In this document: positions 1,731-28,704 of the stretch, one piece after another
How the letters are laid out: each line of letters begins with the position of its first letter
Numbering within the stretch: position 1 is the first letter of the stretch
Origin: Candidatus Woesearchaeota archaeon
GTDB lineage: Archaea; Nanobdellota; Nanobdellia; Pacearchaeales; GW2011-AR1
NCBI GenBank assembly: GCA_964497435.1
Contig: CAZCCD010000002.1
Span: forward strand, 1-32,000
Direction of reading: 5' to 3'
DNA: 32,000 nt
Translations under genes and position numbers: made by a program
The notes under the pieces: generated by a model
What the model was told of the DNA's origin: nothing
Databases searched by the model: none
The model's input: the letters and a program-made list of their open reading frames with translations, nothing else

Positions 1731-1778
1731 TATGTTAATCAAATCTGTGAACGAAAGTGAACAGCAATTTAGAAAATC
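1731..1778 (+). repeat. Copy of dispersed ~50-nt repeat (family 1: TATGTTAA..AAATCTG[C/T]GAAC..AGTGA..CAGC..AAT)
   Basis: tatgttaatcaaatctgtgaacgaaagtgaacagcaatttagaaaatc aligns block by block with 5924-5972, 25831-25866 and 28492-28537. A partial inverted partner lies at 1697-1722 (aaatttgcactcctcac). Confidence 0.55.
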
Positions 1779-5699: not shown

Positions 5700-6614
5700 A
5701 TGTCATCAAAAATCCTTGCGCAAGGCGCAGAAGCAAAAATTATTCTCTCAAATAATTTCGTAACAAAAGACAGAATAAAAAAATCCTATAGACTCCAAGA
5801 GCTTGATGAAAAGATACGAAAGCAAAGAACAAAGGCAGAAAAAAAACTTCTAGAAAAAGCATCCAAAGTGATTAATGTGCCAAAAATAATAACTGAAAAT
5901 AGCTCTGCTTCGCAGAAAATTAAGTTAACAATTAATAAAAAATCTGCGAACCCTAGTGAGCAGCTAAATAAAATTGAAATGGAGTATATTTCTGGTAAAA
6001 GATTATCCGATAATTTAGATAAGTTTTCTTTTCAAATTCAAAAACAAATCGCGAAATTGATCGGTCAAAACATATCCAAGCTCCACGATAATAACATAAT
6101 CCACGGAGATTTAACAACTAGCAATATGATTTTTGTAGAAGATTTGGATGTTAATAATTTAAGTAATACTCCAAACAGAAAAAATAACTTTAAATCAACT
6201 CATCAAAAATATACTGAGTTAACGTCTTCTCAGCGAAGAAATCTGGCAAAGCCGATTTCGAAGCAAAATCAATCAGCGAGCGACAGCGAGCCTAGTAGGG
6301 GTGGGCGAGAGTTTGCACGAGCCAAGTTTACATCAATCTTGAGTGCGGGCTCGAGTTGGTCGAGGAGTGGTGGTGGGAATAAATTTACCATATTCTTCAT
6401 AGACTTTGGCCTTGGCTTCATAAGCAACAAGCTAGAAGACAAGGCAGTTGATTTGCATTTATTAAAACAAGCTTTAGAAGCAAAACACTATAAACACTGT
6501 AAAGAATTGTGGAATTCAATTGAACAAGGATACAAAACATCTAAAGATTCTAAAGCTGTTCTCGAAAGATTAAAGGCTGTCGAAAGAAGGGGGAGATATA
6601 AGGAGAGGTATTAA
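5700..6614 (+). CDS. bud32: Bud32/PRPK (KEOPS) atypical protein kinase carrying two in-frame insertions
   Basis: Motifs ILAQGAEAKI, IEMEYISGK, HGDLTTSNM, FIDFGLG, EDKAVDLHL and ERRGRY. 304 aa against the roughly 200-220 aa usual for the family. Extra segments at about aa 68-89 and about aa 147-228. Confidence 0.85.
   Translation: MSSKILAQGAEAKIILSNNFVTKDRIKKSYRLQELDEKIRKQRTKAEKKLLEKASKVINVPKIITENSSASQKIKLTINKKSANPSEQLNKIEMEYISGKRLSDNLDKFSFQIQKQIAKLIGQNISKLHDNNIIHGDLTTSNMIFVEDLDVNNLSNTPNRKNNFKSTHQKYTELTSSQRRNLAKPISKQNQSASDSEPSRGGREFARAKFTSILSAGSSWSRSGGGNKFTIFFIDFGLGFISNKLEDKAVDLHLLKQALEAKHYKHCKELWNSIEQGYKTSKDSKAVLERLKAVERRGRYKERY
5902..5972 (+). repeat. Family-1 palindromic repeat copy inside the bud32 reading frame
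   Basis: Inverted arms ttcgcaga (5909-5916) and tctgcgaa (5943-5950). gttaacaattaa, aaatctgcgaac, agtgag and ctaaataa blocks are collinear with 28492-28537. Confidence 0.6.
6231..6383 (+). repeat. Family-2 GC-enriched repeat segment inside the bud32 reading frame
   Basis: cgagagtttgcacgag (6306-6321) vs cgagagtttacacgag (3367-3382). gagtgcgggctc (6341-6352) vs gagtgtgggctc (3396-3407). gatttcgaagcaa (6254-6266) vs catcgaaggcaa (3355-3366). Blocks occur in the same order in both loci. Confidence 0.55.
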
Positions 6615-6850: not shown

Positions 6851-7203
6851 ATAAAAAGAAAACTTATAATTAATTTATAAGGGTTTTGTTGCGGTAAAAC
6901 CTGCCACAGGATTGCAATTAAGAGAATTATCCACGGAAAAGCATAATCCACAATATTGGCTACAATCTTTTTATTAATGTTAAACCCCCAGTATTCTAAT
7001 ATAAAACCATACATTGTTTCCTCCCTCTTTTTAGATCTAAATTGCTTTATAGTCAAAATACAATTACCAAATATAATCAGTTGCAAGTAATATAAAAGAA
7101 TAAAGACCAAAATAACCTTCCAACTCAACCAAAAAGGAGAACTCCAAATCAAAAGAACGATTAACAAATGTATCCCAAAATAAACCTCCCATTCACGTTT
7201 CAT
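6841..7203 (-). CDS. Small polytopic membrane protein, unknown function
   Basis: 120 aa with about 4 hydrophobic helices. The last codons (..FIAP*) overlap the 5' 10 nt of tRNA-Gln. 5-nt gap to the upstream ParA/MinD gene. Confidence 0.5.
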   Translation of the reverse strand: MKREWEVYFGIHLLIVLLIWSSPFWLSWKVILVFILLYYLQLIIFGNCILTIKQFRSKKREETMYGFILEYWGFNINKKIVANIVDYAFPWIILLIAILWQVLPQQNPYKLIISFLFIAP

Positions 7204-7208
7204 TTCTT

Positions 7209-8003
7209 TCAGCCAAAAACCTCATCTCTATAAATCTGTCTATTAATTTCTTCTTTCTTAGGATTCATCCACCCAAAAAATTTCATAAACTTTCCAGTGT
7301 TGTATTTTTCTCCAAGAATTGTTGCTGCTAATTTTTTGTATTCCTGACTGCCTTTTGACTTTGGTTTATGAGAAACTGAAGTTTTAAATTCAGACAAAGC
7401 TTTAAGAACATTTGTGTCATAAGGAATTACTGCCATTACAGGAACACCAACAACATCTTCTATTTCTTTAATACTAATCTCAAAATTCTTATTATGGACC
7501 TTATTTAATATCAAACCAATTATGGGGGTACCTCTCTGTCTTGCAGTTCTGACAGCCCTCATTGTATTGCTTAATGTTGGATGATCTGGTGTAGTAACAA
7601 TTATTATCTCATCAGAAGCCAACATAACCCCAAGAGTCTCTTCATTTAAAGCTGGAGATGAATCTAATATTATTACATCATATTTATTTTTTAAAGCAGA
7701 AATCCTATCCTTTAGCTTCAAGGGGCTGCTAATAGCCTTCTCAAACAATGATGAAGGCATGATATCAAATCTTCCAACATTGTGCACAGCATCACTTGGC
7801 TTAGCCCTCCTATCTAGGACATGATGAAGACTTACATCAGGATCAATAATGTTAAAATGCAATCCGAGATTCGGAGCAGACATATTTCCGTCTATTAAAA
7901 GAACCTTTCTTCCAAAACTCGCCAAGGCATCTCCTAAGGCAGCTGTAATAGAAGTTTTTCCAACACCTCCCTTCAATGAAACTATTCCTATGGTTTTCCC
8001 CAT
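7209..8003 (-). CDS. ParA/MinD-family P-loop ATPase
   Basis: Deviant Walker A SLKGGVGKTS, DGNMSAPN and ILDSSPA motifs. 264 aa. A/T box at 8023-8032 about 25 nt upstream. Confidence 0.85.
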   Translation of the reverse strand: MGKTIGIVSLKGGVGKTSITAALGDALASFGRKVLLIDGNMSAPNLGLHFNIIDPDVSLHHVLDRRAKPSDAVHNVGRFDIMPSSLFEKAISSPLKLKDRISALKNKYDVIILDSSPALNEETLGVMLASDEIIIVTTPDHPTLSNTMRAVRTARQRGTPIIGLILNKVHNKNFEISIKEIEDVVGVPVMAVIPYDTNVLKALSEFKTSVSHKPKSKGSQEYKKLAATILGEKYNTGKFMKFFGWMNPKKEEINRQIYRDEVFG

Positions 8004-13915: not shown

Positions 13916-16495
13916 TTAAAGCGTAGCTTGCTTCTCTCCTAACAAAGCCTGACCATACTTTCCATCAAAACCAGGCTTGACTCTTATTTTTCCTTCTCTA
14001 TTTTTCAAAATCAAATCTATTAATTTTGCATCAACGTTATTTTTAATAAAATCAGTTTCAGGAACATTTAATAAAATATTAAACTCATTACCAAAATTTT
14101 GGATTAAAGAATTATATCTTTTCCAAACACTGACAGAATTCATATCGACTCCAAAATGCAAGGCAATTAATTCATGCAAAGGAAGTAATTTATAAAAAGG
14201 TTTTGCATTAATTGGTTTATGTCCTAAAGGAAATTTAGCAATTTTGTCAACCCTATTATCCACACCAATTGTCAACGGTTTTTTGCAAATAGGGCAAAGT
14301 CCATTGAGTTTTTTTGTTTCTTCTGGTGAACAAGAAAAATTACAGTTTCTATGTCCATCATAATGATATTTTCCATATTCAGGAGGAGTTTCTATTGTTG
14401 CCTTTAATCCTTGTCCTGTCCTTATTGCCTTCATAATATTTTCATAACTTAATTCTTTAAGCTCAAATATAGTTGCCTCTCTTCCAATCCTCCACGGCCA
14501 AAAAGAATTATGAACAACCAATTGATTAGCAAGATAATTCTTATAACCAGGAACAGAGATATCATAAAGATAATCAACATCTGACTTAACATTATTAACA
14601 GATTTAACTTCTGCAAGGATAAAATCACCCACTCTCTTCACTTTAGACATCCTAAAAACCTTAAGATTATTAACATATTTATTTAACTTATTTCTTTTAA
14701 TATTATGGTTAAATCCAATTTTCTCCCTAAACTTTCTCAAATTCTCCCCATAGAGAATCAAATTATGACGATATTTCTGCTTTTTCTTCTCTAATAAATT
14801 TAAATAAACTGAACTAAAAATTTCAAACTTTTTTAATAAAGAATCAATTTGATATAATAACAACTTATTAGCTGAACATCCCTTAACACCATGATCATCT
14901 AAAGAACCTTCTGCATCAAAAAATCCTCTTAAAAATCCAGATATTTCATTCAAGGGTGCGGAAAAAATCGAACGAGGTATTCTCCTTATTTTGCTTCTAA
15001 AAACAGACTCTGGAAAGTTTAACTCAAAGAATTTAGCTATTGCAGAAGGAATAACTAAACCGTAAGAATGTTGTTGAGAATACTTAAACAGCCTAGAGCT
15101 ACAAGAAAATAGATTTTTAATTACATCTTGATAATATCTTAAAATATCCTTGTTCTTATCTGTTAAGATTAAACACTTCCCCCTATTTATCTTAGTCATA
15201 CAACCATCTCCAATAAAATATCCCAATAGTTCAAAAAGTTTAATAGAAGAATAATTTGGAAAACTAACCATAGGACCCATATGTTTACAATAATTACCTG
15301 TAAATAAGTTATAATCTAAACTAAGAATTTCAACTATTTTTTTTAATATTTTATCATTAATTTTTACAACTCCTTTCTCAATTTTCCAATAATGGTTTTT
15401 ATCTATTCCTAAAAAATCAGCTAATTGTTTCTGTGTTAATTTCCTTTTATTTCTTTTAGACCTTAAAAAAGAAAGTCCATCTCTGCTTAATGAAAAATAT
15501 ATATTAATATCTGGTTTCTTCATTAATATACTTCCTTCGTCATTATGGGAGATATATGCGGATCTAATTAACAGGTCTCCTTTTTTCAAATGAGAGGCAA
15601 ACTTTTCTATTATAACCCCTTTCTCCCACACATAAAATCTATGTTTATCAGAGACTTTTATCTCACCTCCAGCATATTTGATTTCTTTCAGCATATTTGG
15701 AGATAGTATCTTAGAATACTGAGCTTTAACTCCATTTTTATAAGACATATCTTTAAAATCGGCGTAAGCTACTATACCTTCATCTTTAATTTCAGAGATG
15801 GGAACAGTGTAACCATTCTCCAAGGTAATAAAAGTATCGGGATGCACACAGTGAGCGTCTGAAAAACTAACAACATTAACATTACCTTCTCCAATCTCTC
15901 CTAATCTCCAGGCCATAGAAGGATCAGCGCTCATCCCTGATTCAATTGCATAAATTTTATCTGTCTGATCTTGAAAACACTCTTTTAATGAATCAAATCC
16001 AGAATCACTCCCATATAAACCGAACCAAGGCGTGAATGCATGAGCAGGAATAATTTCAATTTTGTCTTCAATTTCTTTTAAGTCTTTAACTAAATCTCTA
16101 CATGTTATACCAAATATAGGCCTTCCATCATAATCCAATCTTCCTTTGCTTCCAAGATAGCTTGTTATTTTATCTGCGATTTCTCTGTTTGACGCAAAAA
16201 CCAAAAGATGGACAGCCCTTCTCTTTCCTCCTTGAGAAAACATCAAGCTTACTTCTGTCTGCCATAAAAAAGGAAAACCATTGACAGTTCTTAAAATTCC
16301 TTTATCATCTTCTGTCAATTTTTCATCAATTTCTTTCCTATGCAATGGATGCTGAAAATCCCCAACCCCCATCAAACCAAGACCTTTTACTCTCCCCCAT
16401 TTCTCAAGATTATCAATGCTTAAATCCTTAGAAGTTGCCCTTGCATATTTGGAATGAATCTGTAAATCAGCAATAATAAAACTCTCGTTAATCAT
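13916..16495 (-). CDS. PHP-domain endonuclease Q (EndoQ)-like protein interrupted by an intein
   Basis: N-terminus IADLQIHSKYA..GVGDFQHP and IIPAHAFTPW (PHP motifs). C-terminal zinc finger CNFSC..CPICKKPLTIGV. Extein total 411 aa. Start at the ATG at 16495 fits the A/T box at 16516-16526. Confidence 0.7.
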   Translation of the reverse strand: MINESFIIADLQIHSKYARATSKDLSIDNLEKWGRVKGLGLMGVGDFQHPLHRKEIDEKLTEDDKGILRTVNGFPFLWQTEVSLMFSQGGKRRAVHLLVFASNREIADKITSYLGSKGRLDYDGRPIFGITCRDLVKDLKEIEDKIEIIPAHAFTPWFGLYGSDSGFDSLKECFQDQTDKIYAIESGMSADPSMAWRLGEIGEGNVNVVSFSDAHCVHPDTFITLENGYTVPISEIKDEGIVAYADFKDMSYKNGVKAQYSKILSPNMLKEIKYAGGEIKVSDKHRFYVWEKGVIIEKFASHLKKGDLLIRSAYISHNDEGSILMKKPDINIYFSLSRDGLSFLRSKRNKRKLTQKQLADFLGIDKNHYWKIEKGVVKINDKILKKIVEILSLDYNLFTGNYCKHMGPMVSFPNYSSIKLFELLGYFIGDGCMTKINRGKCLILTDKNKDILRYYQDVIKNLFSCSSRLFKYSQQHSYGLVIPSAIAKFFELNFPESVFRSKIRRIPRSIFSAPLNEISGFLRGFFDAEGSLDDHGVKGCSANKLLLYQIDSLLKKFEIFSSVYLNLLEKKKQKYRHNLILYGENLRKFREKIGFNHNIKRNKLNKYVNNLKVFRMSKVKRVGDFILAEVKSVNNVKSDVDYLYDISVPGYKNYLANQLVVHNSFWPWRIGREATIFELKELSYENIMKAIRTGQGLKATIETPPEYGKYHYDGHRNCNFSCSPEETKKLNGLCPICKKPLTIGVDNRVDKIAKFPLGHKPINAKPFYKLLPLHELIALHFGVDMNSVSVWKRYNSLIQNFGNEFNILLNVPETDFIKNNVDAKLIDLILKNREGKIRVKPGFDGKYGQALLGEKQATL
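14507..15850 (-). mobile_element. Intein, 448 aa, with LAGLIDADG homing endonuclease and XRE-type HTH
   Basis: Begins at Cys (..SFSDAH|CVHPDTFITLENG) and ends ..QLVVHN|SFWPW. LAGLIDADG blocks LLGYFIGDGC and GFLRGFFDAEGS. HTH segment LTQKQLADFLGIDKNHYWKIEKG. Confidence 0.85.
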
Positions 16496-16515
16496 AATAA
16501 TCAAGAAATAAAACA

Positions 16516-16526
16516 CTATATAATTA
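16516..16526 (-). promoter_or_regulatory. TATA-like box for the EndoQ-like gene
   Basis: ctatataatta centred 26 nt upstream of the ATG at 16495. Confidence 0.35.
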
Positions 16527-25689: not shown

Positions 25690-25830
25690 AAAGCCAAAAA
25701 GATAAAGTAATTTATAAATTTATTGAGGAAATTGTCTCACTAACATTCTAGATTAAAGATAGATAATATAAACTTATCTTAATAAATCATTAAAATTTAA
25801 AGGCTTTTATTTATCTCTTTCTATAAATTA

Positions 25831-25866
25831 ATAAATAAATCTACGAATCAGCAATTTGAAATAAAA
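25831..25866 (+). repeat. Short copy of the family-1 repeat
   Basis: ataaataaatctacgaatcagcaatttgaaataaaa: aaatct[ac]gaa and cagcaattt.gaaa match 1741-1778. Confidence 0.45.
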
Positions 25867-26938: not shown

Positions 26939-27547
26939 ATGATTACAAAAAAACAAGCAGAACAAATAAAAAAACAGCTCCTTGAACAAATAGATAAGTC
27001 AGATATTCCAAACAAAGAAGAATTAAAATCTTCTATTGAATCAATGTCTCCTCAAGAACTTGAAGAATTTTTAAAGAAAAATAAATTAATAAAATCTCAA
27101 GGTGAATGCATTTTTTGTTCTATAATAGATAACAAAATTCCTTCATATAAGTTGGCTGAAAATAAAGAAGCCATTGCTGTGCTTGAAATAAATCCTATTT
27201 CAAAAGGACATACATTAATAATTCCAAAAACTCATTCAGATAAAGCATCAAAAAACTCTTACGATCTCGCAGAAGAGATGGCTTTAATAATATCTAAAGC
27301 ATTTACTCTTTCTAGAGTTGACATAATTCCCTCAATTTTATTTGACCATGAAATAATAAATGTCCTTCCTGTATACAAAGACGAGAGTCTTAATTCAAAA
27401 AGGAAAAAACATAGCGAAAAAGAGCTTGAAGAAATCCAAAACCAAATGCTTAAAGTTAAAGAAGAAAAACATCAAGAAAAACCAAAAGAAAAGAAAATCC
27501 ATGTTTTTACAGACAAAGATACGTGGCTACCAAAAAGAATTCCATAA
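26939..27547 (+). CDS. HIT-family protein with a degenerate histidine triad and an N-terminal coiled extension
   Basis: CIFCSIIDNKIPSYKLAENKEAIAVLEINPISKGHTLIIPKTH is a typical HIT N-terminal half. The position of HxHxHxx reads FDHEIINVLP. Confidence 0.6.
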   Translation: MITKKQAEQIKKQLLEQIDKSDIPNKEELKSSIESMSPQELEEFLKKNKLIKSQGECIFCSIIDNKIPSYKLAENKEAIAVLEINPISKGHTLIIPKTHSDKASKNSYDLAEEMALIISKAFTLSRVDIIPSILFDHEIINVLPVYKDESLNSKRKKHSEKELEEIQNQMLKVKEEKHQEKPKEKKIHVFTDKDTWLPKRIP

Positions 27548-28363
27548 TCCAGTATTCCATAAATAAAATAATATTAAAAGCGATATTAAAAAAACAGGGA
27601 CAAAGACTATACCTTGTTTAATCTTAATTTTTTTGTATTTTTTCCTTATTAGTTTTATCTCCTCACGATTAAGGCCTTCCCAGTTTGGCTTAATAATCTT
27701 TTTTCCAACCTTAACACTTTTATACAACCAATCTCCTTCTGTCAAAACATTTGTTTTTGTTTCCCTAATCATACAAATACCATCGACAGTCCTAGCATAA
27801 ATATAAAGATAAGGCATAATCAAAAGTATAAAACCAACTATGAGGAAAATGCTCTCTAAAAAACCAAACAATATTATTAACAAACTAAATATCATAACAA
27901 TGAATATTTTATTTTTTTCTTTTTTTAAATTTGTTTTAAATGCTTTATTAAATTCTTTATATTTTCTAAAACTCAAATAAATGGCAGTTATAATGCCATA
28001 AAATGATCCTATAAAAAGGAAAAGGAAAATAAAAATGACAAAGATTCTCAAATTATAAGAGAAAATATCTGTAAAAGGCAGAACACTTCCTAAAGCAATC
28101 ATTAATTTTGCATCTCCTCCTGCAAATATCCTCGAATAATAAAAAATATTTCCTATAGCAAAGAAAATTAGCAAGCCTATTAATCCCTGATAAAAAAATC
28201 CAAAATCATCATTAAAAAGACTGAAAAAAAACCTAAATCCTAATGCAAAAATCACTAAAGAAAAACTTATCCAATTCGGGATTTCCCTAGTTTTTATATC
28301 AGTAATGCTGGCAAAAACAATCCATATTAAAGCTAATAAAAAAAGTATTATCACCTCTATCAT
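27527..28363 (-). CDS. Type IV prepilin/preflagellin peptidase (A24 family, archaeal type with C-terminal domain)
   Basis: First catalytic Asp in SITDIKTREIPNW, second in the GxGD-type motif FAGGDAKLMIALG. Polytopic membrane protein, 278 aa. Confidence 0.8.
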   Translation of the reverse strand: MIEVIILFLLALIWIVFASITDIKTREIPNWISFSLVIFALGFRFFFSLFNDDFGFFYQGLIGLLIFFAIGNIFYYSRIFAGGDAKLMIALGSVLPFTDIFSYNLRIFVIFIFLFLFIGSFYGIITAIYLSFRKYKEFNKAFKTNLKKEKNKIFIVMIFSLLIILFGFLESIFLIVGFILLIMPYLYIYARTVDGICMIRETKTNVLTEGDWLYKSVKVGKKIIKPNWEGLNREEIKLIRKKYKKIKIKQGIVFVPVFLISLLILFYLWNTGLWNSFW

Positions 28364-28491
28364 GTTTTAAATAAAGAAAAAGTGTTTATAATTATTTTGC
28401 ATAAAGGTTTCTTAATAAGTTAGGAATTCTTAAGTTTATTTAGATTAGTATTAGTGATATAAAGAATTAATTATAGTGAGAAGTTTTCTAT

Positions 28492-28537
28492 GTTAACAAT
28501 TAAATAAATCTGCGAACAGAGTGAGACTAAATAATTT
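28492..28537 (+). repeat. Intergenic twin of the bud32-internal family-1 repeat
   Basis: gttaacaattaa (28492-28503), aaatctgcgaac (28506-28517), agtgag and ctaaataa blocks occur in the same order as 5924-5970. Confidence 0.6.
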
Positions 28538-28566: not shown

Positions 28567-28683
28567 TCACCTTCTAAAAACATCTAGACTTCGTTTTCCG
28601 CCGCCTTTTCTATAAGGATGTTTCTTCTTTTCCCTGAACTTACTCTTTTTCTTGTTTCTTTTTTCACTAAATCCATAATCCAT
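28567..28683 (-). CDS. Possible very basic 38-aa micro-protein (below the ORF-track size cutoff)
   Basis: Hand translation: MDYGFSEKRNKKKSKFREKKKHPYRKGGGKRSLDVFRR*. It starts 21 nt after the upstream gene's stop, with an AGAGG about 14 nt upstream of the ATG. Confidence 0.3.
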   Translation of the reverse strand: MDYGFSEKRNKKKSKFREKKKHPYRKGGGKRSLDVFRR

Positions 28684-28704
28684 ATTAATCAATTAAGCCT
28701 CTTT

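Follow-up and report, generated by a model that had tools for sequence, protein, structure and literature searches.

An archaeal bud32 gene probably carries, in frame, a copy of a dispersed hairpin-forming repeat resembling Rickettsia palindromic elements

Introduction

Selfish repeats that reside in frame within essential genes have so far been a curiosity known mainly from Rickettsia, in which the Rickettsia palindromic elements (RPEs) RPE-1 to RPE-10 were described (Ogata et al. 2000, as summarized in PMC10969869). We analyzed a stretch of 32,000 nucleotides (nt) from a Candidatus Woesearchaeota archaeon (contig CAZCCD010000002.1, positions 1 to 32,000; referred to as the window), in which a first-pass annotation, made from the sequence alone, had noticed a palindromic element inside bud32, the gene of a KEOPS kinase. 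Our data indicate, with a probability that we put at about 75%, that positions 5902-5966 are one copy of a short, non-coding, hairpin-forming, dispersed repeat family of Pacearchaeota and Woesearchaeota that resembles RPEs and lies in frame in an essential gene. The family is an archaeal counterpart of RPEs. Like these, it consists of short non-coding palindromic dispersed repeats in the small AT-rich genome of a host-dependent organism, has copies that lie in frame in genes and in loops compatible with the protein fold, and has no known transposase. The present family, however, belongs to DPANN archaea, and relatedness in sequence is neither indicated nor expected.

There are further differences from RPEs. 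The archaeal units are shorter, modular (core, hairpin module H, and G-tract) and mosaic; about 20% of their detected copies are located in genes, whereas RPE-1 reportedly has 19 of 44 copies there; and the hosts found so far are all RNA-modification enzymes, whereas RPE hosts are unrelated metabolic genes. [quoted passage not shown] However, many copies of the latter are single-armed, and neither a target-site duplication nor a parent insertion sequence with matching ends was found, neither having been searched for specifically. A census reporting one Woesearchaea genome with 105 MITEs per Mb describes neither this family nor in-frame copies in Bud32 (PMC11602168). Repetitive extragenic palindromic (REP) sequences and bacterial interspersed mosaic elements resemble the family in their hairpins of 20 to 40 nt, in the selection on the stem, and in mosaic clusters with other motifs (as at 12260-12420 of contig L007; L and P numbers designate contigs or loci and proteins, respectively, of our comparison set). 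REPs, in contrast, are extragenic by definition and tied to REP-associated tyrosine transposases, whereas 15 of 66 copies of the present family lie in open frames. In the full-text literature we found no prior description of such elements in DPANN archaea or of inserts in DPANN Bud32 or Kae1.

Results

The host protein and its two inserts

The window is AT-rich (about 31% GC), and the nearest relatives of its genes are found in Pacearchaeota and other DPANN archaea. Its Bud32 comprises 304 amino acids (aa), as compared to about 200 aa in insert-free relatives. The best solved relatives are the KEOPS kinases of Methanocaldococcus jannaschii and humans (E values from 1e-25 to 1e-18), with 8unk_B from M. 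jannaschii at 2.6e-25 and 2vwb and 3en9 at about 5e-24. The catalytic segments HGDLTTSN and IDFGLG (DFG) are intact and correspond to invariant columns in an alignment of 24 relatives. The alignment with 8unk_B is interrupted exactly at residues 53-90 and 150-230, that is, at both inserts. All Pfam kinase and RIO models score under their curated cut-offs because the two inserts split the domain, and automatic annotation would call this genuine Bud32 at 5700-6614 hypothetical, as the sources do for several relatives.

Insert 1 extends the loop between ..VINVP and KIEMEYI to 31 aa, in comparison to 11 aa in most relatives; the roughly 20 extra residues reported by the first-pass annotation are thus real. 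Insert 2, which that annotation had not linked to the element, is larger and is built from the same family; its flanks are the MIFV strand, which comes after the catalytic-loop motif, and the DFG strand. It is locally GC-rich and holds two of the five non-tRNA GC-rich stretches of the window (6266-6332 and 6333-6386), and the only GGGTGGG and GCGAGCG motifs of the window fall within it. At 6225-6312, module H is followed by a core variant and a G-tract, and the same order was observed at the intergenic loci on L133 and L050. A match of insert 2 to mir-920 of Rfam (E = 0.037) is noise; in the window only tRNA passed the Rfam gathering score.

Relatives of insert 1 in the window

To assess the likeness between insert 1 and an intergenic sequence 22 kb away, we compared 5902-5972 with the rest of the window by gapped local alignment, using 60 order-2 Markov replicas of the window as the null. 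The alignment of 5921-5971 with 28489-28537 scored 50, as opposed to 30.0 ± 2.2 (maximum, 35) in the replicas, and 120 random real windows of 71 nt scored at most 39 in an equivalent alignment. The pair is therefore real. It escaped a gapless repeat finder, as insertions and deletions distinguish one copy from the other. With a core profile derived from related genomes, we detected 5934-5969 (E = 2e-7), 28497-28532 (E = 2e-6), and 1734-1770 (E = 0.0018) in the window.

Much of what the first-pass annotation had claimed about this pair holds. The identical blocks that it quoted are present (GTTAACAATTAA at 5924 and 28492; AAATCTGCGAAC at 5940 and 28506), as are the inverted arms of the bud32 copy (TTCGCAGA at 5909 and TCTGCGAA at 5943). 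Its description of a palindromic element of ~50 to 70 nt with a twin applies to the bud32 copy, which is palindromic, but the twin has a single arm and is not a palindrome. Two weaker relatives had also been proposed. That at 1731-1778 was recovered by the profile, and its stem has undergone a compensatory change (CTGT...ACAG in place of CTGC...GCAG), whereas that at 25831-25866 was not recovered, its AT-rich match at 20 of 22 positions being no better than unrelated background.

Insert 1 is predicted to fold into a hairpin of -15.3 kcal/mol (z = -3.15), a value equaled by none of 200 shuffled sequences, whereas the twin does not fold as a hairpin (z = +0.6) because its left arm is missing. 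The twin has stop codons in all three forward frames and lies between a prepilin peptidase gene (27527-28363, minus strand) and a basic 41-aa open reading frame (ORF; 28567-28692, minus strand); no terminator-like site was found at the twin. The window copies at 1733, 5921, 6141, and 28489 have in common the prefix (T)ATGTTAA(C/T), which is absent from the copies of other genomes; this sequence pattern suggests that copies may have spread or been homogenized inside this genome. The 41-aa ORF ends about 30 nt from the twin, was not annotated by the tools used, and encodes a very basic product (MINMDYGFSEKRNKKKSKFREKKKHPYRKGGGKRSLDVFRR) that may be a small ribosomal-type protein.

Insertion sites and family DNA in Bud32 relatives

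Besides aligning 24 relatives of Bud32, we parsed all 120 for insert length and fetched the bud32 genes or loci of four relatives for DNA comparison. A number of observations can be derived from these data. (i) Inserts occur at two sites. Site 1, which follows ..KASKIIN.P, comprises 11 aa in most relatives and is long in 15 of 120. Site 2, between TTSNMI and FIDFGLG, comprises 6 to 8 aa in most insert-free relatives and is long in 69 of 120. At least 29 of the 120 have neither insert, and a neighbor-joining tree shows these insert states intermingled. (ii) The loops are rich in K and N and variable in length, and carry recurrent peptide modules, namely, SASQ, L(L/T)INKK, SANxSEQQIKGG, LPAHSxSQIN, RRNLAEPISEQxQSASDSEP, and GGREFAR...SAGSSW. 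An identical module can occur at site 1 or at site 2. (iii) The modules are similar at the DNA level. Insert 1 of the window shares 80% identity over 80 nt with its counterpart in the L003 Bud32 (insert 1), 83% over 47 nt with insert 2 of the L006 Bud32, and 78% over 45 nt with insert 2 of the L005 Bud32, and its left arm (5904..5916) is identical in the L003 insert 1 and the L005 insert 2. In window insert 2, the region of 6272..6292 is 85% identical over 66 nt to the L005 Bud32 gene, and exact blocks of 19 and 17 nt recur in insert 2 of the L007 Bud32. For comparison, the DNA identity among host genes is about 70% in the conserved columns of the kinase core, inserts excluded, and about 50% at third positions over all columns common to five bud32 genes; with its 78 to 85% identity, the element is thus as conserved as the best kinase motifs despite lying in disordered, length-variable loops. 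(iv) The sequence LPAHSxSQI at site 2 of many Bud32 proteins is the opposite-orientation reading of the core, that is, the reverse-complement reading of ATCTGCGAAC-NNN-AGTGAGCAG, and Bud32 therefore holds core DNA in both orientations. (v) Across five syntenic loci, the proteins encoded next to Bud32 are almost constant in length (SRP54, 453 to 461 aa; MinD, 263 to 267 aa; GAN, 442 to 449 aa; eIF2alpha, 232 to 239 aa) and are devoid of any module; Bud32 itself ranges from 253 to 369 aa.

Additional inserts were noted in individual relatives. In P0062 (399 aa) and P0078 (347 aa), site 2 holds inserts of 150 to 160 aa whose composition is more suggestive of folded domains than of repeat modules; the P0062 insert is adjoined by the module RRNLAEPISKQYQSAS. 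The L003 Bud32 gene has a third insert near its C-terminal end (7147-7212, ..WAGGERLREGWKKTGRAESGVRGMGGR..), the DNA of which is 71% identical over 73 nt to the site-2 insert of the same gene.

In-frame copies in other genes

Copies in frame were found in genes of six families: Bud32 (the window, L003 twice, L006, and L167), Kae1/TsaD (L137, L162, and L024, at one insertion site; Pfam E = 6.5e-75), TRM5/TYW2 (L160 and L159; E = 7.5e-33), TYW3 (L018, 2014-2691; E = 3e-41), MnmA (L146/L152; E = 1.6e-69), and the N-terminal part of an RsmF-like methyltransferase (L126; E = 6.8e-10). The mnmA gene carries two inserts; L146 has the reverse-core, spacer, and core arrangement of window insert 1, and its second insert is 77% identical to the region of 6272..6292 in window insert 2. 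A further open frame with a copy, on L155, belongs to no family and may not be a gene. Unexpectedly, all identified hosts are RNA-modification enzymes, five of the six families acting on position 34 or 37 of tRNA (t6A37 for Kae1 and Bud32, wyosine-37 for TRM5/TYW2 and TYW3, and s2U34 for MnmA), and dozens of neighboring housekeeping genes are without a copy. In this sample of six families, retrieved with one exact-match pattern, such a bias would be very unlikely if insertion or retention were random with regard to gene function. Possible causes include a relaxed constraint on these enzymes, an advantage that K-rich or RGG-like loops would confer in binding RNA, and a shared regulation by the hairpin.

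Each orientation has one fixed reading frame, AHSxSQI being the invariable reading of reverse copies and SANxSE that of forward copies. All seven Bud32 inserts for which the DNA sequence was available are multiples of 3 nt, free of stop codons, and open in the frame of the host, whereas composition-matched shuffled sequences are open in 0.2 to 14% of cases across the Bud32 inserts and in 0.2 to 0.3% for window insert 2. The frames of the Kae1, TRM5, TYW3, and MnmA hosts are likewise open through the insert. An AlphaFold model of the window Bud32, run with an alignment of 25 sequences, has predicted local distance difference test scores of at least 90 in the kinase core, of about 50 to 75 in insert 1 (means of 10-residue blocks, residues 61-90), and of less than 50 in insert 2 (residues 156-225). 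The simplest reading of these observations is that the inserts would be translated as disordered surface loops.

Copies outside coding genes

A scan of one genome per species with the pattern ATCTGCGAAC-N1-5-AGTGAGCA matched 118 stretches, with about 90 estimated to arise by chance. Among the matches were 18 (17 loci) in metagenome-assembled genomes (MAGs) of Woesearchaeota, Pacearchaeota, or Nanoarchaeota, at 2 to 4 per MAG and nearly all intergenic. With a stricter pattern, 42 stretches were retrieved from metagenomes, most of them on contigs of 29 to 37% GC. Several of these copies are only a few bases away from a contig end, which would be expected of a repeat that breaks assemblies, and several contigs terminate inside the repeat itself; two contigs of one MAG have their first ~140 nt in common, core included, and diverge beyond. 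On 331 kb of AT-rich DPANN contigs, the core profile detected 66 copies, of which 15 fall in open frames of 120 aa or longer and 51 fall outside such frames. The intergenic copies have no consistent orientation or distance relative to neighboring genes.

Several roles considered for the repeat were rejected. The inconsistent orientation and distance of the intergenic copies, together with the lack of a terminator-like site at the twin, speak against a promoter or terminator. An origin recognition box, suggested by a dyad with a G-string, does not fit copies that are dispersed rather than clustered. The two copies at 5924 and 28492 are not direct repeats that bound an integrated element, as the 22 kb between them consist of housekeeping genes (RadA, NDK, eIF2alpha, and GAN) and the repeat is dispersed in many genomes. 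A clustered regularly interspaced short palindromic repeat array is ruled out by copies that are kilobases apart at irregular spacing.

No Rfam family matches the repeat in the window or the related loci. A word-index search with concatenated insert peptides gave three candidates and zero matches, and when 61 aa of insert 2 were compared with 1.8 billion representatives by a full HMMER search, the sole matches were a piece of this very protein and a low-complexity repeat protein unrelated to it; these peptide searches are uninformative on host range because the queries are too short for significance. In viral contigs there was only one doubtful match.

Two observations on related sequences may be added. 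Contigs of ~50% GC, apparently from the rumen (L138, 1-260; L153, 1-190; L158; L129), contain tandem arrays with a period of about 55 to 125 nt of TCTGCGAACGAAGTGAGCAGA and the related TCGCGAACGAAGTGAGCGA, which have the same GAAC-GAA-GTGA loop and a different stem; we treated these contigs as unrelated or uncertain and left them out of the covariation evidence. Related Woesearchaeota contigs contain tRNA genes of 130 to 157 nt with long introns (L036, 6967-7123; L063, 2059-2188; L073, 4726-4880), in which no resemblance to the repeat family was seen by eye.

Architecture of the repeat

The full repeat unit measures about 60 to 110 nt, and its signature is a core of 20 to 22 nt, ATCTGCGAAC-N1-5-AGTGAGCAG. 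In full copies, a reverse-complement arm is followed by an AT-rich spacer and then by the core. Examples are insert 1 of the window, that of MnmA (GAHSTKLRSQIN...KSANASEQ), and the L024 and L055 intergenic copies, the upstream arm of which is a diverged reverse copy. Inverted core arms were also found in Trm5 on L160, in addition to MnmA on L146, but are undetectable in many single-core copies. A G-tract, GGGTGGGCGGGTGGG, frequently comes after the core, in genes (with the reading IKGGWVGG or PPAHP) as well as in intergenic DNA (L066 and L077). Runs of the G-quadruplex type, for example GGGGTGGGTGGGCGGG, are present at L066/L077 121-141, on L137, L160, and L162, at L003 6578-6610, and at L006 5940-5960. 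Such a tract after the core is striking in genomes of ~31 to 37% GC; the gene readings are GG(W/R)xGG or, when reversed, PP(A/T)HP.

With its form AGCGAAG-[6+3 bp stem, RRA loop]-CNGAGC, module H resembles an expanded version of the core; both contain the motif 5'-GCGAA..[loop or covarying helix]..NGAGC-3'. Eleven copies of H, 3 in genes and 8 intergenic, are 97% paired, with compensatory changes in 7 of 9 pairs. None of 500 shuffles reached this pairing and covariation, and controls slid along the sequence were 18 to 50% paired. The H stem itself is therefore under selection, at the DNA or RNA level. Modules of the family also form mosaic clusters, at L007 12260-12420, L066/L077 96-200, and window 6225-6386. 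The features are compiled in Table 1.

Table 1. Features of the repeat family in the window and consensus forms of the family
Feature	Position	Strand	Evidence or remark
bud32, KEOPS kinase/ATPase, host gene	5700..6614	+	ORF; homologues named Kae1-associated kinase Bud32; PDB matches
Insert 1, palindromic element copy, in-frame reading ..SSASQKIKLTINKKSANPSEQ..	5902..5966	+	Alignment, profile, fold, AlphaFold
Insert 1, left arm TCTGCTTCGCAGA	5904..5916	+	Shortened reverse-complement core copy; small hairpin by itself
Insert 1, right arm = family core ATCTGCGAAC-CCT-AGTGAGCAG	5942..5963	+	Core profile E = 2e-7; pattern matches in other genomes
Insert 2, 249-nt composite of family modules, 83 codons, reading EDLDVNN...SGGGNK	6138..6386	+	DNA matches, AlphaFold, shuffles
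Insert 2, degenerate core-like copy ATGTTAATAATTTAAGTAATACTCCAAACAGA	6141..6175	+	75% identity over ~50 nt to 28470-28520 at the twin; E = 2e-4
Insert 2, hairpin module H, AGCGAAG-GAAATC.GGC-AAA-GCC.GATTTC-GAAGC, reading RRNLAKPISKQ	6229..6267	+	Profile E = 3e-10
Insert 2, core variant ATCAGCGAGCGACAGCGAGCC, reading SASDSEP	6272..6292	+	Same frame as SANPSEQ of insert 1
Insert 2, G-tract and GC-rich module GGGGTGGGCGAGAGTTTGCACGAGCC ... GTGCGGGCTCGAGTTGG, reading GGREFAR...SAGSSW	6297..6359	+	Exact blocks in L007 Bud32 insert 2; related intergenic mosaics at L007 12260-12420 and L066/L077 111-200
Intergenic twin, single-arm	28489..28537	+	Core 28508-28527 = ATCTGCGAAC-AG-AGTGAGAC
Weaker intergenic copy TATGTTAATCAAATCTGTGAACGAAAGTGAACAGC	1733..1770	+	Profile E = 0.0018; upstream of ftsY
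Putative end sequences, CTGCTCACT...GTTCGCAGAT			
Putative RNA hairpin, UCUGCGAAC-NNN-AGUGAGCAG			

Elsewhere in the window, Pfam identified an intein with a LAGLIDADG endonuclease and a helix-turn-helix domain in an ORF of 866 aa (13916-16516, minus strand).

Discussion

The first-pass annotation had proposed that an RPE-like palindromic repeat lies in frame in an essential gene, and five lines of evidence support this proposal, namely, the several sites per gene, both orientations, the several host genes, the intergenic copies at non-homologous sites, and the interleaved Bud32 tree. The same lines point to multiple events, from which we infer that the copies arose by separate insertions. Some Bud32 orthologues do carry the segment, yet it resembles intergenic DNA far beyond the expectation from shuffled sequence. 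The further claim that the element is mobile or recombining is borne out as to dispersal and as to the variety of sites, genes, and orientations, whereas transposition is a putative mechanism.

The following course of events is best in line with the data. The repeat has a core that is often faced across an AT-rich spacer by an inverted and more degenerate copy and is variably joined to H and the G-tract. Most copies lie between genes, and some would have come into coding genes, whether inserted there or through recombination or gene conversion involving other copies. Those persisting in genes would be the ones that leave the frame open and lie in surface loops, and their translation would give rise to disordered stretches rich in K, N, S, and Q and in G and R. 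In the window Bud32, two loops contain family DNA. Spread may have proceeded by transposition in trans, recombination, or gene conversion. As no transposase is known, it would need a trans-acting factor or recombination; no transposase family was detected among the 21 window ORFs scanned with Pfam, a scan that covered about half of the ORFs of at least 90 aa.

A number of points weigh against this interpretation. No pair of filled and empty sites was found in near-identical genomes, the closest Bud32 relative being ~51 to 60% identical, and there is no length polymorphism of Bud32 within clusters of 90% identity. The DNA identity of the element (78 to 85%) equals that of the best-conserved kinase windows and does not exceed it. 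Neither a target-site duplication nor an autonomous partner was identified, with no dedicated search for either. The stem of the short core is almost invariant, and the core therefore provides little covariation evidence. Finally, the Kae1 copies occupy one site in three relatives and are apparently vertically inherited, so that old insertions passed on by descent may account for much of the distribution.

Alternative explanations were considered in view of the same data. An ordinary lineage-specific Bud32 loop, with an intergenic likeness due to chance or AT-rich low complexity, would be in line with the K/N-rich, length-variable nature of the loops and with window matches such as 25826-25848 that are no better than AT-rich background. 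It is nevertheless very improbable, given that insert 1 and its twin align 9 standard deviations above the null, that the 20-nt core recurs in five other genes and at dozens of intergenic sites elsewhere, and that one module is found at two Bud32 sites and in both orientations. The presence of one gene copy and one intergenic copy in the same window brings to mind a diversity-generating retroelement, a class reported to be common in DPANN archaea, in which the intergenic template would rewrite the gene copy. The copies, however, differ by insertions and deletions and not only at adenines, the core is conserved across many genomes and genes, no reverse-transcriptase family was detected among the 21 window ORFs scanned (again about half of the ORFs of at least 90 aa), and the gene copy is situated in a kinase loop instead of a C-terminal lectin-fold domain; this possibility is hardly credible. 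The extra residues might also never be made, if the hairpin were cut from the mRNA like an intron, for example by the tRNA-splicing endonuclease. The stable hairpin of insert 1 would be compatible with such processing, and the RNA-modification hosts have a parallel in crenarchaeal cbf5, an intron of which is removed from the mRNA by this endonuclease. Splicing would, however, not explain why the sequenced inserts keep the frame, being multiples of 3 nt and stop-free. In addition, a full-length open Bud32 with an insert is the norm (69 of 120 at site 2), the plain hairpin predicted as the fold lacks a bulge-helix-bulge motif, and intergenic copies have stops in all frames, which shows that the copies in genes are specifically kept open. 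We consider excision quite improbable; the inserts are probably translated.

It is also conceivable, if unlikely, that the repeat is a recruited functional module. According to this explanation, a structured hairpin (tandem GA, like a kink-turn [K-turn] or K-loop, with a G-quadruplex-type tract) or a useful peptide, such as a K-rich or RGG-like loop or a docking motif, would have been taken up repeatedly and specifically into tRNA-modification genes and the RsmF-like gene and been retained there by selection, as flexible RNA-binding loops or as a regulatory handle, in genomes without accessory subunits. The restriction of the identified hosts to RNA-modification enzymes, with dozens of neighboring housekeeping genes free of copies, would be accounted for, as would the frame fixed for each orientation, the occurrence of the GCGAA..NGAGC motif in both core and H, and the GGR/RGG-type stretches encoded by the G-tract modules. 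Moreover, the forward strand reads stem-GA...(N)RU-GA-stem, which would give tandem sheared G.A pairs beside a GC stem as in the K-turns and K-loops bound by archaeal L7Ae. The repeat differs from these in that it occurs in both orientations relative to transcription and has no Rfam match, and the K-turn likeness derives from inspection of the sequence pattern. Since gene copies exist in both orientations, no single RNA motif or peptide is conserved across the hosts; most copies are intergenic with an inconsistent orientation to their neighbors; and the host sample is small, comprising six families found with one exact-match pattern. If this explanation were true, the repeat would act as a mobile supplier of novel protein segments directed to a single functional class.

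As an RPE-like family of DPANN archaea that is independent of Rickettsia, the repeat would show that genomes which are reduced, AT-rich, and host-dependent have taken this route to new protein segments more than once. Such a family would also help to explain why Bud32 and other proteins of Pacearchaeota and Woesearchaeota are 25 to 85% longer than their orthologues, why their domain scores fall under the cut-offs, and where MAG assemblies break. The covarying H hairpin and the conserved core are ready probes for a genome-wide census, and the apparent restriction of the hosts to tRNA-modification enzymes, if it holds, ties a repeat family to one cellular function in a way that can be tested directly.

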